This document shows, piece after piece, positions 8,407 through 15,866 of a stretch of 32,255 nt of DNA. The stretch covers positions 4,494 through 36,748 of the forward strand of contig JAHDHT010000012.1 of assembly GCA_020631175.1 (NCBI GenBank), read 5' to 3'. Position 1 is the first letter of the stretch. Every line of letters starts with the position of its first letter. Both the position numbers and the translations under genes were made by a program. The notes under the pieces are model-generated. The model was not told the origin of the DNA, made no database searches, and saw only the letters and a list, made by a program, of their open reading frames with translations. The stretch comes from Chitinophagales bacterium. Its GTDB lineage: Bacteria > Bacteroidota > Bacteroidia > Chitinophagales > JAHDHT01.

Positions 8407-9783
8407 ATGAGTAAAGCGATAAAGCTAAAAAAGGGGTTCAATATCAATTTAGATGGCAAACCCGAACTTAAGCTTGATAAATCGATTAAGGCAAGTACAT
8501 TTGCCGTGAAACCAGCTGATTTTCAGAGTCTTCGACCAATACCGAAGTTAACAGTTGAGGTAGGAGATGAAGTTCTTGCAGGTGATCCATTGTTTTTTGA
8601 TAAGCCAAATCCTGATGTTTTGTTTACTTCACCGGTAAGTGGAGAAGTTGCAGAAATTAGAAGAGGTGCAAAAAGAGCAATTGATTCGGTAATTATCATT
8701 GCTGATGGAAAGAACCAGTTTAAAGATTTTGGATCTGCAAATCCTAAGAATCTTTCAAGAGAAGACGTAAAAGCTAAACTGAAAGAATCAGGATGTTGGG
8801 CATTTATTAAGCAACGTCCATTTAATATTGTCGCAGAACCTGATGCTGTTCCAAGAGATATATTTATCTCAGCTTTCGATACAAATCCTTTAGCTGCAGA
8901 TACAGAGTTTACACTTGGAGCTGAATTAAAAGCTTTTCAGGCAGGTATTGATGCCTTAAATCAACTTACAGATGGCGATGTCTACGTAGGAGTTAATGGC
9001 GGAATTGGAGGTTCTTCTTTCGATGGCCTTTCAAATTGTACCGTGAATAAGTTTTCCGGTCCGCATCCAGCAGGAAATGTTGGAGTTCAAATTCATCACG
9101 TAAAGCCAATAAACAAAGGTGAAATTGTATGGACGGTTTCTCCTTATGATCTTGTTACCATTGGGAAACTCTTCCTTCATGGTAAGTACGATACTTCAAG
9201 AACAATTGCTATTGGAGGGCCTTCAGTAGCTGAGCCAAAGTATATAACTACTTATTCAGGTGCTAAGGTTTCTGCACTTTTGGATGGAAATATCAACGAA
9301 GAGAATGTTCGAGTAGTATCAGGGTCTGCATTAGTAGGAGATAATATAGGTATCGATGGATTTTTAGGATCATTTCATCATCAATTAACCATTTTAGATG
9401 AAGGTGATTTTTATGAAATGCTCGGATGGATCCTTCCAAGTTATCCTAGACCAAGTATTTCTCCGACAATTCCACCTTTCACTTTAACTACTAAGTTTCC
9501 ATTTATAAAGAAGGTAGATAGCTTTAATGCGAATACAAATACACACGGTGAAAAACGAGCATTTGTGGTTACTGGTCAGTATGAAGCTGTAACTCCAATG
9601 GATATTTTCCCTCAGCAATTGCTAAAAGCTATTCTAAGTAATGACTTAGATAAAATGGAAGGTTTAGGAATATATGAGGTCGTTGAAGAAGATATGGCTC
9701 TTTGCGAATTTGTTTGTACATCTAAGTTTAATGTACAGGAGACACTTCGTAAGGGCTTAGATTTAATGAGAGAACAAGGTTAA
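8407..9783 (+). CDS. nqrA: Na+-translocating NADH:quinone oxidoreductase subunit A
   Basis: 'MSKAIKLKKGFNINLDGKP' N-terminus, 'SPVSGEVAEIRRGAKRAI', 'FSGPHPAGNVGVQIHH'. First gene of the canonical nqrABCDEF order. Confidence 0.95.
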   Translation: MSKAIKLKKGFNINLDGKPELKLDKSIKASTFAVKPADFQSLRPIPKLTVEVGDEVLAGDPLFFDKPNPDVLFTSPVSGEVAEIRRGAKRAIDSVIIIADGKNQFKDFGSANPKNLSREDVKAKLKESGCWAFIKQRPFNIVAEPDAVPRDIFISAFDTNPLAADTEFTLGAELKAFQAGIDALNQLTDGDVYVGVNGGIGGSSFDGLSNCTVNKFSGPHPAGNVGVQIHHVKPINKGEIVWTVSPYDLVTIGKLFLHGKYDTSRTIAIGGPSVAEPKYITTYSGAKVSALLDGNINEENVRVVSGSALVGDNIGIDGFLGSFHHQLTILDEGDFYEMLGWILPSYPRPSISPTIPPFTLTTKFPFIKKVDSFNANTNTHGEKRAFVVTGQYEAVTPMDIFPQQLLKAILSNDLDKMEGLGIYEVVEEDMALCEFVCTSKFNVQETLRKGLDLMREQG

Positions 9784-9803: not shown

Positions 9804-11072
9804 ATGCGCAAAGCGAGTTTTTTACGGAAGCAAATAGATAAGGTAAAACCTTATTTTAACAGCAATCCGATATTACATACGGTTTTCGATGGACTTGAAA
9901 CTTTTTTGTTTCAACCTAATGAAACTACTACATCCAAAACCCACATTAAGGATGGGATGGATTTAAAACGTACGATGGTGCATGTTGTAATTGCTATGGC
10001 ATTATGTGCAGCACATGGTACGATGAACATTGGTCATCAGCACTATGCAAGCATGGGAATGTTTCCTGGTTTGTTTGATGGTTTATTGTACAAATTAACT
10101 TACGGTATTATTCAGTTCCTGCCAATTTTCACAGTAGTGCATTTAGTTGGACTGGGGATTGAATTCTTGTTTGCCGCATCTAAAGGGCATGCAATCGAAG
10201 AAGGCTTTCTGGTCTCCGGTTTCCTTATTCCGCTTATAATGCCGCCTGATATTCCTTTATGGATGGTAGCTGTTGCCACTGCTTTTGCGGTAATCATAGC
10301 TAAAGAAGCATTTGGTGGTACGGGAATGAATATATTGAATGTGGCATTAACAGCAAGGGTCTTCGTGTTCTTTGCTTATCCAACAGCAATCTCCGGAGAT
10401 GAAGTTTGGATTGCGCAGGATTACAATATCATTCATCAGATAATCGGTTTACCTCAAGTTGCTTTTGAACATTTTGGTATTAACAAAATGCCGGATGGAG
10501 GCTGGGCCACAATGATGGTCGACGGCTATACCGGAGCTACTCCATTGGCTTTAGCGGCTAAGGGTGGATGGCCTGCAGTAACAGAATATTATTCACTAAA
10601 CGATATGATTATGGGTTTCATCCCTGGTTCAGTTGGTGAGATGAATAAATTATTAATCATTGCCGGAGCTGCATTCTTAGTTTTTACCGGAATTGGAAGT
10701 TGGAGAATTATGCTTTCAATGTTAGTAGGCGCTATCGTTATGGGCATTCTTTTAAATGTAATAGGAGGTGCAATGGGGCTCGATCAAACGGCATTTGTTA
10801 ATGTGCCATGGTATTATCAATTAATTATGGGATCCTTCTTCTTTGCAATGGCCTATATGGCAACGGACCCCGTAACAGCTGCTCAAACTGAAAGTGGTAA
10901 ATATATTTATGGATTCCTTATAGGAGTAGTCGGTATGATTGTTCGGGTGCTTAACCCGGCATATCCGGAAGGATGGATGTTAGCCATCTTATTACTAAAT
11001 GTATTTGCTCCGTTAATTGATCATGTTATTGTTAATAGAAATATTAAAAGGAGGTTAGCTCGTGTCGGATAA
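9804..11072 (+). CDS. nqrB: Na+-NQR subunit B (polytopic membrane protein, covalent FMN)
   Basis: Multi-TM protein with the FMN-attachment motif 'GYTGATPLA', plus 'MATDPVTA' and 'NVFAPLIDH'. Confidence 0.95.
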   Translation: MRKASFLRKQIDKVKPYFNSNPILHTVFDGLETFLFQPNETTTSKTHIKDGMDLKRTMVHVVIAMALCAAHGTMNIGHQHYASMGMFPGLFDGLLYKLTYGIIQFLPIFTVVHLVGLGIEFLFAASKGHAIEEGFLVSGFLIPLIMPPDIPLWMVAVATAFAVIIAKEAFGGTGMNILNVALTARVFVFFAYPTAISGDEVWIAQDYNIIHQIIGLPQVAFEHFGINKMPDGGWATMMVDGYTGATPLALAAKGGWPAVTEYYSLNDMIMGFIPGSVGEMNKLLIIAGAAFLVFTGIGSWRIMLSMLVGAIVMGILLNVIGGAMGLDQTAFVNVPWYYQLIMGSFFFAMAYMATDPVTAAQTESGKYIYGFLIGVVGMIVRVLNPAYPEGWMLAILLLNVFAPLIDHVIVNRNIKRRLARVG

Positions 11073-12129
11073 TATTAAAACAGTATTATACGCAGCAGTT
11101 ATGACGTTAATTGTTGCGATCTCTTTAGCTTTCATTACTTCGTTTCTGAGACCAACTCAAAAGGCAGAAGAAAATAAAGACAAGAAGGTAAATATTCTTA
11201 AGGCCGTTGAATTCAACGACTTTATGGATGTCGATGAAGAGTATGCTAAGCGTATACAAGAATTGGTTGTCGATTACAATGGAAAAGTTGTTGAAGGAAA
11301 AAAGGCCTTCGATGTAGATGTTAGAAAAGAGTCGAAAAATAAACCGGCTGAAGAAAGAATGTATCCTTTGTACGTTTACACCAATGATGCTAAAGAGAAG
11401 AAATATATCCTTCCAATGATTGGTCTTGGTCTTTGGGATGAGATATCTGGATTCATGGCTCTTAAAGGTGATTTCAATACCATTGATGGTGCTGTTTTTG
11501 CCCACAAAGCGGAAACACCAGGTCTGGGCGCTGAGATAACAACAGATTGGTTTCAAAGTCAATTTCGAGGTAAAAAGCTAATGGATGCAGGTGGTAAAAT
11601 GATATTTAATGTTCTCAAAGGTCGTGGAAATACATTAGATCAATATGAAGTCGATGGCATTACCGGTGCAACAATTACATGTGTTGGAGTTGATAATATG
11701 ATAGCTGAAGATGTTGCTTCATATGCTAATTTCTTCAAATCAGAATCAAAGAAATTATCTGTAGCATCAGGAGGGAAATCAGTTAATCCTGCTTTGAAGA
11801 ATCCAACTGTTACAAGAATGGCTAAAGATTTTTTCAAGATTGACAAAGTTAGAATCGCTAATCAGATTAATTTCCATAATAACTCATCATTTGTAACTGA
11901 AAATTCATTTCCTCAAATTCAGGCATTGGTTGCTTATTTAAATAACAATCCTGAAAAACGAGTGAAGATTAAAGTGAATAACAAGAATAATGGTGAGCTT
12001 TCTCAAAGAAGATCAGAAAATATTTATGATTATGCACTTCAGCAAGGTGCGAGAATAGCTCAGTTAGAGTTTGAAGGAACAAGTGAAAAGAATAGAAATA
12101 ATAACGTAGTTTTTGAATTATTAAACTAA
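11062..12129 (+). CDS. nqrC: Na+-NQR subunit C with an unusual ~125 aa C-terminal extension resembling a degenerate OmpA-like domain
   Basis: The GTG start overlaps the nqrB end by 11 nt. Has an N-terminal TM helix, 'ETPGLGAEI' and the FMN-attachment motif 'DGITGATIT'. The canonical NqrC core ends near aa 228, but the ORF continues to aa 355. Confidence 0.9.
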   Translation: MSDNIKTVLYAAVMTLIVAISLAFITSFLRPTQKAEENKDKKVNILKAVEFNDFMDVDEEYAKRIQELVVDYNGKVVEGKKAFDVDVRKESKNKPAEERMYPLYVYTNDAKEKKYILPMIGLGLWDEISGFMALKGDFNTIDGAVFAHKAETPGLGAEITTDWFQSQFRGKKLMDAGGKMIFNVLKGRGNTLDQYEVDGITGATITCVGVDNMIAEDVASYANFFKSESKKLSVASGGKSVNPALKNPTVTRMAKDFFKIDKVRIANQINFHNNSSFVTENSFPQIQALVAYLNNNPEKRVKIKVNNKNNGELSQRRSENIYDYALQQGARIAQLEFEGTSEKNRNNNVVFELLN

Positions 12130-12135
12130 GTATTT

Positions 12136-12825
12136 ATGAGTACTGCAACAGCAGATCAGATAGAAGAAGTAAAAGTACCCAAGAAAGAACGGGAACCCTT
12201 ATTTTCAAAAAAGAACAGAGAATTAATAACAGACCCGCTTGACGATTCGAATCCGATAACGGTGCAGGTATTAGGTATTTGTTCGGCATTGGCAGTTACT
12301 ACACAAGTTAAGCCGGCATTCGTGATGTCGATTTGTGTAATTTTTGTTTGTGCCTTTGCGAATTTAATTATCTCATTATTGAGAAACGGAATTCCATCCA
12401 GAATTCGAATGATTGTTCAATTGGTAGTAATTGCGACGCTTGTAACATTGGTAGCGGAATTCTTAAAGGCTTATCAATATTCATTGTCAAAAGAATTAAG
12501 TGTATACATTGGTCTTATTATTACGAATTGTATCGTAATGGGGCGTCTCGAAGCATTTGCAATGGCAAATAAACCCTGGCCTTCATTATTAGACGGTATC
12601 GGTAACGGTATCGGCTATGGTGCGATACTTATTTTTGTAGCTGTATTCAGAGAATTTTTGGGTTCAGGTTCCTTATTCGGATTTCAAATCATTCCGGATT
12701 GGATGTATGGTATCGGTTATGCCAATAACGGAATCATGCTCACACCTGCAGCAGCTATGTTCTTAATTGGTGTCTTTATTTGGTGGCAAAGAGCAAGAAA
12801 CCAAAAATTAGTTGACATCTCATAA
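12136..12825 (+). CDS. nqrD: Na+-NQR subunit D
   Basis: Polytopic RnfE/NqrD-type membrane protein: 'NPITVQVLGICSALAVT', 'YIGLIITNCIVMGR'. Confidence 0.95.
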   Translation: MSTATADQIEEVKVPKKEREPLFSKKNRELITDPLDDSNPITVQVLGICSALAVTTQVKPAFVMSICVIFVCAFANLIISLLRNGIPSRIRMIVQLVVIATLVTLVAEFLKAYQYSLSKELSVYIGLIITNCIVMGRLEAFAMANKPWPSLLDGIGNGIGYGAILIFVAVFREFLGSGSLFGFQIIPDWMYGIGYANNGIMLTPAAAMFLIGVFIWWQRARNQKLVDIS

Positions 12826-12843: not shown

Positions 12844-13461
12844 ATGTTAGAAGCTTTAAATATATTTATTCAATCCGCATTCATCGAAAATATGGTATTA
12901 GCCTATTTCCTTGGGATGTGTTCTTTTCTTGCTGTTTCGAAAACGGTTAAAACAGCTTTTGGTCTTGGTCTTGCAGTAATCTTTGTATTAGCGATGACAA
13001 CTCCAATCAACTGGGCGATAAAAAACTTCTTCTTAAATGAAGGTGCATTAGCCTGGATAAATCCTGCATGGGCAGATGTTGATCTTAACTTTTTAGGCTT
13101 AATTATTTACATCGCCGTTATTGCATCATTTGTGCAACTTGTTGAAATGATTGTAGAACGTTTCTTCCCTGCACTTTATACTTCTTTAGGTATTTTCCTT
13201 CCATTAATTACAGTTAACTGTTCTATTCTTGGTGGAACTTTATTTATGATTACTAAAGAGTATAATTTCTGGCAATCTATTCCTTACGGTTTAGGTTCAG
13301 GATTTGGGTTCTTCCTTGCAATTGTTGCTTTAGCAGCAATTAGAGAAAAATTAAGATATAGTGCGGTACCCGCACCGTTACGTGGTCTTGGTATAGCTTT
13401 TATCATTACCGGATTAATGGGTATTGCATTCATGAGTTTTATGGGAATTAAAATCTCATAA
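12844..13461 (+). CDS. nqrE: Na+-NQR subunit E
   Basis: RnfA/NqrE-type protein: 'ENMVLAYFLGMCSFLAVS', 'GIFLPLITVNCSILGG'. Confidence 0.95.
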   Translation: MLEALNIFIQSAFIENMVLAYFLGMCSFLAVSKTVKTAFGLGLAVIFVLAMTTPINWAIKNFFLNEGALAWINPAWADVDLNFLGLIIYIAVIASFVQLVEMIVERFFPALYTSLGIFLPLITVNCSILGGTLFMITKEYNFWQSIPYGLGSGFGFFLAIVALAAIREKLRYSAVPAPLRGLGIAFIITGLMGIAFMSFMGIKIS

Positions 13462-13510: not shown

Positions 13511-14806
13511 ATGGTATTAATTAGTAGTCTTGTCTTTTTAATAATAATGTTATCTCTTGTAGGCTTATTACTTTTTGCTAAGTCTAAATTGGTTCCTTCA
13601 GGTGATGTCACCTTGGTCATTAATGGTGATGATGCGAATCCTGTTGTAACAAAACCGGGAGATACACTTTTAACAGCCTTATCTGAACAAAACTTATTCC
13701 TTCCTTCTGCTTGTGGAGGAGGTGGTACATGCGCTATGTGCTTATGCCAGGTGACAGAAGGCGGCGGAGATGTTTTGCCGACAGAAATGAATCACTTAAC
13801 CAGAAAAGAAGCTAAAGAACATTGGAGATTGGCTTGTCAGGTAAAAGTGAAAAACGATATGAAAGTTCAGGTGCCTGAAGAGGTATTTGGAATTAAAAAA
13901 TGGGAATGTGAAGTAGTCTCTAACTACAACGTTGCCTCTTTTATTAAAGAGTTTGTAGTTAAACTTCCGGAAGGAGAGAGCATGCATTTTGAATCGGGTG
14001 GATATATTCAGATCGATGTACCGAAAATAACGGTGCCCTTCAAGGATATGGATATTTCACCACTTCCTAACGATCCGGCCGGAAAGGATAAATATCAGTC
14101 TGAATGGGATAAATTCCAATTATGGGATTTAGTTATGAAGAATGAAGAAGAGCAATTCCGTGCTTATTCGATGGCTAATCACCCTGCTGAAGGAAATGTT
14201 GTAATCCTTAATATTCGTATTGCAACGCCACCTTGGGATAGAGCTAAAAACACCTGGATGAATGTTAATCCGGGAGTGTGCTCATCATATGTTTTCGGAT
14301 GTAAGCCAGGAGATAAAGTGGTAGTTTCTGGTCCTTATGGTGAATTCTTTATTAAAGAAACCAAAAAAGAAATGGTTTACATTGGTGGTGGTGCCGGTAT
14401 GGCTCCATTAAGATCACACCTTTTCCATTTATTTCACACATTAAAAACTACTGACAGAAAAGTTTCATTCTGGTATGGTGGTAGAACAAGAAGAGAATTA
14501 TTCTATATCGATGAATTCAGAGCCATTGAAAGAGAATTTCCAAACTTCAAATTTTATGTAGCATTAGATAACCCGTTACCGGAAGATAACTGGAATGAAA
14601 AAACTACAATTGAAGAAGAAGGAGATGGTTTCATCGGATATATCATGCCGGTTTGTTATAACATGTATTTAAAAAATCATCCGGAACCGGAAGAAATAGA
14701 ATACTATTTCTGCGGACCTCCTTTAATGAATGCTTCGGTAATTAAAGCATTAGATGAATTAGGTGTACCGGAAGAAAATATTGCCTTTGATGATTTCGGA
14801 GGTTAA
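13511..14806 (+). CDS. nqrF: Na+-NQR subunit F (2Fe-2S ferredoxin + FAD/NADH domain)
   Basis: N-terminal TM helix, 2Fe-2S motif 'CGGGGTCAMCLC...C', FAD motif 'RAYSMAN', and 'GGGAGMAP' NAD(H) loop. Confidence 0.95.
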   Translation: MVLISSLVFLIIMLSLVGLLLFAKSKLVPSGDVTLVINGDDANPVVTKPGDTLLTALSEQNLFLPSACGGGGTCAMCLCQVTEGGGDVLPTEMNHLTRKEAKEHWRLACQVKVKNDMKVQVPEEVFGIKKWECEVVSNYNVASFIKEFVVKLPEGESMHFESGGYIQIDVPKITVPFKDMDISPLPNDPAGKDKYQSEWDKFQLWDLVMKNEEEQFRAYSMANHPAEGNVVILNIRIATPPWDRAKNTWMNVNPGVCSSYVFGCKPGDKVVVSGPYGEFFIKETKKEMVYIGGGAGMAPLRSHLFHLFHTLKTTDRKVSFWYGGRTRRELFYIDEFRAIEREFPNFKFYVALDNPLPEDNWNEKTTIEEEGDGFIGYIMPVCYNMYLKNHPEPEEIEYYFCGPPLMNASVIKALDELGVPEENIAFDDFGG

Positions 14807-15866
14807 AAATATAAGGTCGGCTTTTGCCGGCCTTTTTTCTTGGGGATTATTCTTTAGCTTCTTTTTTATTGGAAGTACCTTTTTGGTTTCATGCAATCAG
14901 AATTATAAAAGAGATGTAAAAATTACGGGTAAAACTATGGGTACTACCTATACCGTTAAATACATTTCAAATGCTGAAAATCAAGTTGAAAAAGAGCAAA
15001 TTGATAAGGTATTAATTGCCGTAAATAAGTCGATGTCAACTTATGATCCCAATTCAACTATTTCAAGAATTAACGAAGACACAGTTTCATGGCATGCATT
15101 AACTTTTAATGACTTCATGTTTAAAGATAATTTTGAACTGTCAGTTAAAATGTTCAATGCAACTAATGGTTATTTTAACCCGGCTATTGGTCCTTTAGTT
15201 GAGTATTGGGGATTTGGACCGGAAAGAAAGAAACCGCAGTCGATAGATCAAAAGCAAATAGATCTTTTAAAACAACGATGTGATTTCAAAAGCATTAGCC
15301 TGGTTAATCTTGAAAACAATTCTTTCATGATAAAAAAGCAACATCCTCAATCTAAATTAGATTTCAATGCAATAGCAAAAGGATACGGAGTTGATAAAGT
15401 TGCTCAATTACTTGAGAAAAATAATATTGAAAGATATATGGTGGAAATAGGTGGAGAGGTTCGATTAAAAGGACTGAACGCCGCAGAAGTACCATGGGCT
15501 ATAGCTGTTTCAAAACCGGAAAAGAAATCCAACCAGATCGAATTAAAAGGTATTCTGAATAATAAAAATACAAGTATAGCTACTTCTGGTAATTATCAGA
15601 ATTATTTAAAGATAGGCGATAAGGATTATGGTCATATAATCAATCCGAATACGGGCATGTCGGAGCAAACAGATTTGTTAAGCGCTACTGTTTTACACGA
15701 GAACTGCGCAGTAGCTGATGCTACTGCTACAGCATGTATGGTAATGGGTTTTGATGCCTGTAAAAGTATGATCGAAAAAAGCCCAAATCTTGAGGCTTAC
15801 TTAATTTATAAAGATTCGGAAGGAACAAACAAGTATTATAAAACAGCCGGTGTTTCAATTCGATAA
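14763..15866 (+). CDS. apbE: FAD:protein FMN transferase (flavinylates NqrB/NqrC), lipoprotein
   Basis: Lipoprotein-type signal '...FFFIGSTFLVSC', 'MGTTYTVKY' at the start of the mature domain, 'FNAIAKGYGVDKV', 'IATSGNYQN', 'HIINPNTG'. Start is ATG 14763 or ATG 14790; both overlap the nqrF 3' end. Confidence 0.85.
   Translation: MYRKKILPLMISEVKNIRSAFAGLFSWGLFFSFFFIGSTFLVSCNQNYKRDVKITGKTMGTTYTVKYISNAENQVEKEQIDKVLIAVNKSMSTYDPNSTISRINEDTVSWHALTFNDFMFKDNFELSVKMFNATNGYFNPAIGPLVEYWGFGPERKKPQSIDQKQIDLLKQRCDFKSISLVNLENNSFMIKKQHPQSKLDFNAIAKGYGVDKVAQLLEKNNIERYMVEIGGEVRLKGLNAAEVPWAIAVSKPEKKSNQIELKGILNNKNTSIATSGNYQNYLKIGDKDYGHIINPNTGMSEQTDLLSATVLHENCAVADATATACMVMGFDACKSMIEKSPNLEAYLIYKDSEGTNKYYKTAGVSIR
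14813..14838 (+). terminator. Intrinsic-terminator-like hairpin 9 nt after the nqrF stop, lying inside the apbE signal-peptide codons
   Basis: aaGGTCGGC-tttt-GCCGGCCtt (7-9 bp stem with one G-U pair) followed by a TTTTTT run. Confidence 0.55.

Follow-up and report, generated by a model that had tools for sequence, protein, structure and literature searches.

The Na+-NQR complex is a well-studied respiratory sodium pump. Its subunit NqrC is composed of a membrane helix and a periplasmic FMN domain that carries electrons within the complex, and recent Na+-NQR structures show that this FMN domain moves between partners during turnover. The nqrC gene of the present window (the whole stretch of 32,255 nucleotides of Chitinophagales DNA that was analysed) raises the question of what a further C-terminal domain does on such a mobile subunit. 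A first-pass annotation of the letters had read this addition as a degenerate OmpA-like domain and remarked that no such NqrC fusion is known to have been described. The remark holds for the literature searched on NqrC or Na+-NQR with an OmpA-like or peptidoglycan-binding domain, in which incidental co-mentions were the only matches and no paper on the combination was found. The protein is a new combination of known domains, occurring in a small uncultured clade and having a putative wall-binding function. The reading favored here, with a probability of roughly 0.5, is that the tail of this clade acts as a non-covalent peptidoglycan tether for NQR, whose binding would be weakened or altered in the window's copy.

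Gene and operon setting

The nqrC gene (11062-12129) contains 355 codons plus a stop, begins with GTG and matches TIGR01938 at 182.1 bits against a cutoff of 144. As with all the features described below, it is placed on the forward (+) strand. The gene is surrounded by a complete nqrA-B-C-D-E-F-apbE operon, in which each neighbor was confirmed with Pfam: nqrA (8407-9783; NQRA_N, NQRA_2nd and NQRA_SLBB), nqrB (9804-11072; NQR2_RnfD_RnfE), nqrD (12136-12825; Rnf-Nqr), nqrE (12844-13461; Rnf-Nqr), nqrF (13511-14806; Fer2, FAD_binding_6 and NAD_binding_1) and the flavin transferase gene apbE (14763-15866; ApbE). The stop codon of nqrC is located 6 nt upstream of the nqrD start, and the nqrC frame contains no internal stop or frameshift. 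The source genome is a metagenome-assembled genome (MAG) totaling 4.37 Mb (520 contigs; completeness 83.5%; 36% GC). It contains one NqrC copy, and therefore the protein encoded at 11062-12129 must be the working subunit.

At its 5' end, nqrC overlaps the last 11 nt of nqrB (11062-11072), the overlap including the GTG start. An overlap of 10-17 nt and a GTG start were observed in every member of the fusion clade (see below) whose DNA was read, although some of these proteins are listed in the database with an M start. To judge from the sequences, this recurrent arrangement suggests translational coupling of the two genes.

Domain layout of NqrC

Three parts are distinguished in the protein: a core (residues 1-228), a variable linker (residues 229-261) and a folded C-terminal domain (residues 262-355). 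The core begins with the N-terminal membrane-anchor helix (approximately residues 8-30; 11083-11151), recognized as the hydrophobic stretch VLYAAVMTLIVAISLAFITSFL, modeled by AlphaFold2 (AF2) within a helix of residues 3-47 and aligned with chain C in NQR structures of V. cholerae. The FMN-binding domain (residues 123-215; 11428-11706) matches Pfam FMN_bind (PF04205) at 51.7 bits against a cutoff of 22 (E=1.4e-13). The TGAT flavinylation motif (residues 201-204; 11662-11673) is visible in the sequence, and its Thr204 is presumably the flavinylation site, as established for NqrC. In a Foldseek search with the full-length AF2 model, ranks 1-14 were all NqrC chains (E from 5e-14 to 3e-11). The fold, the scores above the family cutoffs, the membrane helix, the TGAT motif, the position between nqrB and nqrD and the nearby apbE all identify the protein as an NqrC.

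The NCBIfam NqrC models cover residues 3-230 only. Since the NqrC and FMN_bind models stop by residue 230, residues 229-355 are extra, in agreement with the first-pass annotation, which had quoted the sequence exactly and placed the end of the core near residue 228 of a 355-residue frame. It also gave about 230-260 residues as the size of NqrC proteins. Among the 120 best relatives retrieved from a database of 5.8 billion proteins, the length distribution is bimodal, with 106 proteins of 212-265 residues and 14 of 326-356.

The NqrC of V. cholerae (PDB 8evu, 7xk3 and 4u9s) and that of Parabacteroides distasonis (3lwx) resemble residues 1-228 (Foldseek E of about 1e-13 to 1e-14), with a membrane helix, FMN_bind domain and TGAT motif in common as well as the nqrABCDEF-apbE operon setting. 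Known NqrC proteins continue for only about 10-30 residues beyond the FMN domain, whereas that of the window adds a linker and a domain totaling 127 residues. Some NqrC subfamilies are described by long models of 310-320 positions (NCBIfam NF003751, NF003752, NF003754 and NF003755). These models match the window's core with their C-terminal two thirds, and hence their extra length is N-terminal or internal, not C-terminal.

The linker (11746-11844) is Gly/Ser-rich and variable, as reflected in its low identity, its dN/dS (see below) and the low pLDDT at its start, and it ends in a conserved helix, 'AKDFFK'. In this helix (residues 253-258, 'MAKDFF'; 11818-11835), Phe258 is invariant and the pattern AKxFF occurs in 9 of the 13 family tails compared. 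The segment may correspond to the N-terminal helix found packed against the sheet of OmpA-like domains of the MotB and YiaD types, or else serve as a docking element.

Homology and predicted fold of the C-terminal domain

The C-terminal domain (residues 262-355; 11845-12126) is assigned as a diverged OmpA-like domain of beta-alpha-beta-alpha-beta-beta order from profiles and from AF2 and Foldseek. A profile scan, proposed with the first-pass annotation as a check, gave for the window's tail a match to Pfam OmpA (PF00691) of 22.7 bits (E=1.3e-4; 21.5 bits with the whole protein), which is below the gathering threshold of 27.2 bits. Several independent NCBIfam models of OmpA type also match the tail, among them the YiaD-type model (1.6e-7), PA1041 and PorE. 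In the family as a whole, PF00691 matches 13 of 13 tails at E<=0.01 (best 7e-7). A precomputed PF00691 match exists for four relatives and is marked weak where its strength is shown.

The relationship becomes clearer with profiles. A two-tail profile, built from the window's tail and that of an uncultured Chitinophagales MAG (G001), was run exhaustively on 1.84 billion representative proteins and retrieved at least 150 at a library-wide E<=1e-3. The best match outside NqrC had an E of 4.7e-11, and all nine of the non-NqrC matches sampled were canonical PF00691 domains (69-187 bits). With one such canonical protein (P0127), BLASTP gave an E of 3e-12, the window's tail being 35% identical to it across 100 aligned residues, with one gap of 6 residues. 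A profile of the 13 tails searched against the PDB gave PorE (6top) as the best match (E=4e-4) and also found OmpA, OprF and Pal. Only profiles were significant against the PDB, the single-sequence phmmer search with the tail giving no significant match there (E=0.72). Likewise, a word-indexed protein search with the tail alone returned the window's own protein only, and the relatives were obtained with the full-length alignment.

The structural prediction leads to the same assignment. The AF2 model of the full subunit has pLDDT values of 90-96 for residues 260-355 and shows the beta-alpha-beta-alpha-beta-beta layout. With this model, Foldseek retrieved NqrC and RnfG chains, and the other matches at E<=1e-3 were OmpA-like peptidoglycan-binding domains, except for 8z5n. 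With the tail-only model, the top 50 PDB matches were all OmpA-like peptidoglycan-binding domains, PorE among them. The rmsd was 2.3 A to OprF, 2.2 A to Pal, 2.1 A to MotB and 2.2 A to AbOmpA with bound peptide (3td5). For the best matches, TMq was 0.56-0.63, about 30 linker residues being counted in the query length, and the rmsd 2.1-3.5 A. The tail is thus established, by homology and fold, as a diverged OmpA-like domain. Since it comes after the periplasmic FMN domain of NqrC, the tail would be located in the periplasm, by homology to the solved NQR. The initial reading of a degenerate OmpA-like domain is consequently supported by sequence, predicted fold and topology.

A capsid match (Pfam MCP_V20_C, PDB 3j26; E=0.002-0.03) was also obtained and is attributed to chance. 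The aligned part is limited to some 36-40 residues in the Q/N-rich helix region, MCP_V20_C is found in 1 of the 13 tails, and no capsid appeared in the fold search.

The source genome contains 16 OmpA-like matches, among which the NqrC tail is the sole one under the Pfam cutoff. The 15 canonical matches are distributed over contigs C373, C107, C70, C318, C480 and others, and several of them end open frames of about 640-830 residues, the size and layout of PorE-like type IX secretion proteins. Weak matches to the NqrC tail in related genomes likewise lie at the ends of frames, mostly of about 570-830 residues.

Putative ligand pocket and proposed role

The tail has the fold of PorE (PG1058; PDB 6top), from the type IX secretion system of Bacteroidota, and both carry the LSxRRA helix and, behind strand 2, a 'DRK'. 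In PorE the domain belongs to an outer-membrane lipoprotein that also contains TPR, WD40 and CRD domains, whereas the NqrC tail sits on an inner-membrane NQR subunit. [quoted passage not shown] The side chains of Asp576, Asn584 and Arg591 hold the peptidoglycan, Asp576 and Arg591 binding the diaminopimelate (DAP), and Phe541, Tyr583 and Ile587 pack on the peptide (PMC7192894).

These contacts were mapped onto the 13 family tails via HMMER alignment. They fall in a remodeled ligand-pocket segment, 'VNNKNNGELSQRR' (residues 305-317, including N307 and R317; 11974-12012), which is defined by the alignments and the PorE contacts (PMC7192894). The equivalent of Asp576 is Asp in 12 of the 13 tails and is replaced, by Asn307, in the window's copy alone; this equivalence depends on gap placement, on which two HMMER alignments agree and from which BLASTP deviates by one residue. 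The equivalent of Arg591 is Arg in 11 tails (R317 in the window) and Lys in two, and the Arg that precedes it is invariant. On the other hand, all 13 tails have a deletion of 5-6 residues between strand 2 and helix 2, corresponding to PorE 579-583. Compared with PorE, the NqrC tails lack GPDAY (including Tyr583) and an equivalent of Phe541, a position taken by Gly or by a small or variable residue, and the Asn584 position is Asp in 10 of the 13 tails and Asn in the window. Because the Tyr583 loop is absent and the Phe541 and Asn584 equivalents are changed, the family pocket is not canonical.

In the mechanism proposed, a flexible linker of about 33 residues would join the NqrC core to a diverged member of the OmpA/Pal/MotB/PorE fold, and this domain would hold the NQR complex to peptidoglycan non-covalently, in the way of the MotB/PomB stators. 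Within a pocket from which the loop deletion has removed one wall, the stem-peptide diaminopimelate would be held by the conserved Asp and Arg. The stators (PDB 2zov, 3s02 and 3wpw), which serve as a functional analogy, fix an ion-translocating complex to the wall with the same order of parts: the anchor in the inner membrane is followed by a flexible linker in the periplasm and then by the OmpA-like domain at the C-terminus. Other wall-anchoring proteins of the inner membrane have this layout too. Their fold matches the tail with an rmsd of 2.1-2.9 A, and the homology is confined to the OmpA-like domain. MotB works in a torque generator, for which wall anchoring is mechanically required. We know of no mechanical need for wall anchoring in a redox-driven pump. 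That NQR in the window's Chitinophagales family is in fact physically bolted to the cell wall via NqrC can be put forward only tentatively.

A less favored but plausible explanation is that the OmpA-like fold was kept and peptidoglycan binding lost, either in the whole clade or in the window's copy alone, the tail having a protein-protein or intramolecular role. It could dock on the periplasmic faces of NqrB, NqrD or NqrE, dimerise NQR, or restrain the swinging FMN domain of NqrC. The family-wide loss of the pocket loop, with the changed Phe541 and Asn584 equivalents, speaks for this explanation, as does the lack of both the Asp and the RVE motif in the window's copy. Foldseek also matched OmpA-like parts of structural machines, such as the Legionella Dot/Icm components. 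The selection regime is compatible with either role. Across the clade, pairwise identity averages 68% in the core, 59% in the OmpA-like part and 30% in the linker that joins them. Three independent close pairs gave a Nei-Gojobori dN/dS of 0.07-0.09 for the OmpA-like part and 0.04-0.135 for the core; for the linker it was 0.15-0.17 in the two pairs that yielded a value. With a dN/dS as low as that of the enzyme core, the OmpA-like part is constrained by purifying selection just as strongly as the core itself, which fits a non-wall function equally well. However, the DAP-binding positions have been kept (Asp in 12/13; Arg in 11/13 plus two Lys), for which there is no other obvious explanation, and the long and poorly conserved linker better fits a tether that reaches out.

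The peptidoglycan tether thus remains the favored reading for the clade. Its interest lies in the presence of a conserved and selected wall-binding-type domain on the very subunit whose FMN domain moves during turnover. If true, the NQR of this clade would be the first enzyme of a respiratory chain with a peptidoglycan anchor of its own, which would also imply that immobilisation matters for the function of NQR, whether through a fixed position, a braced NqrC FMN domain or adjacency to another envelope machine. If the binding is real, the clade would constitute a natural experiment on the lateral immobilisation or bracing of a respiratory enzyme, and its natural variants, i.e., the Asp-bearing copies and the Asn copy of the window, bear on what an OmpA-like pocket needs. 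The impact is moderate, given a putative function and a small clade of uncultured bacteria.

The NqrC tail joins scattered hints of energy-converting membrane complexes that are tied to the wall. In Gloeobacter violaceus, the photosystem I (PSI) subunit PsaB has a C-terminal extension of 155 residues, similar to outer-membrane proteins and hypothesised to be a peptidoglycan anchor; this extension does not appear in the solved PSI structure (PMC11565984). Both extensions are carried by a core subunit of an energy-converting complex, but the complex and the phylum differ.

Erosion of the window's copy

The window's copy is, on sequence grounds, the most eroded of the clade. Five motif substitutions, Asn in place of Asp at residue 307 (N307) and Asn at four further positions, are found in this copy alone. 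The motif differences listed in the first-pass annotation are all real in the alignments: 'VNNKNN' stands for GHTD, the loop before 'LSQRR' is shortened, and 'NNNVVFE' stands for NRRVE. The last of these forms the eroded last-strand motif (residues 346-352; 12097-12117), which in the relatives reads (S/G)(D/N)R(I/V)EF. The annotation had also taken the loss of the canonical Asp as a sign of an altered ligand. The loss is true of the window's copy but not of the clade, in which 12 of 13 tails keep the residue, and the clade-wide change is instead the deleted pocket loop. Since the Asp and other motif residues are now Asn and the fold is kept, canonical binding to the wall has probably become weaker or different in this copy, for which the case for a peptidoglycan tether is weakest.

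It is unlikely, on the whole, that the tail is a neutral appendage that worked in the ancestor and is decaying in the window's lineage. The domain has 19% Asn, compared with 4-11% in the relatives, and a GC content of 30%, compared with 37% for the core. These values would agree with decay, as would the five substitutions and the position of the tail as the only OmpA-like match of its genome under the Pfam cutoff. However, 127 codons have stayed open in a genome of 36% GC, where stops arise easily, and the domain is 46-57% identical to those of the relatives, compared with 17-36% for the linker. Its AF2 pLDDT exceeds 90, and dN/dS relative to the nearest relative is about 0.13, though with synonymous sites saturated.

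Distribution and origin of the fusion

The tail is present in at least 14 NqrC proteins (326-356 residues) from independent assemblies. The one other genome of the window's family, a MAG of an uncultured Chitinophagales of a different genus, carries the fusion at 57% full-length identity in an nqrB-C-D-E context. At least 12 further full-length fusions are metagenomic and derive from JGI, Logan, ENA and NCBI assemblies. The gene occupies the position between nqrB and nqrD in 7 of the 7 intact metagenomic copies checked (8 of 8 when a broken copy is included), and the longer contigs of the checked copies also contain nqrA, nqrF and apbE.

Outside this group the extension is absent from the genomes sampled. 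NqrC was found in 109 of 401 genomes of the order, and a match beyond about residue 260 was seen in two members of the family only. The 67 other NqrC proteins of the phylum sample all stay within about 265 residues in an uninterrupted frame. A length survey across Bacteroidota, suggested at the outset, hence places the extension in one clade within the order and phylum samples. When genome contigs were searched with the tail alignment, the only locus retrieved was that of the G001 MAG ('uncultured Chitinophagales bacterium').

In trees of the NqrC core, the fusion proteins form one clade, with support of 97/94 in a careful 46-row tree and 99 (SH-aLRT) in a 119-row tree. As all fusion proteins fall in this one clade, the sequences indicate that the fusion arose once, within one uncultured Chitinophagales family. 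In the tail-less sister lineage (G010), the gap between nqrC and nqrD is 92 nt, with no donor gene inside.

The chance that an assembly or sequencing error joined nqrC to a separate downstream OmpA-like gene is negligible: the source genome is a fragmented MAG and one relative (P0018) is split, but at least 13 other proteins from different samples (JGI, Logan, ENA and NCBI) carry the fusion uninterrupted and with an in-frame linker, the junction lacks a start codon followed by a signal peptide, and the P0018 contig is itself of poor quality. Because the fusion is kept across independent assemblies, an artefact is effectively excluded, and the lost stop or frameshift named in the first-pass annotation as a possible refutation is not borne out.

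The split copy, P0018 (259 residues; JGI sample 3300000977, contig BBAY70_10003360, L027:2853-3845), has suffered a deletion of about 30 codons and a frameshift. These remove the first strand and helix of the tail, the remainder of which ('KTNPTKRVKILVNDRKD...GDRVEFELLN') lies in another frame. With the rest of the tail still encoded there and nqrF also fragmented on the same contig, P0018 is not taken as a natural tail-less form of the clade. Its sequence would be explained by either a poor assembly or a decaying operon.
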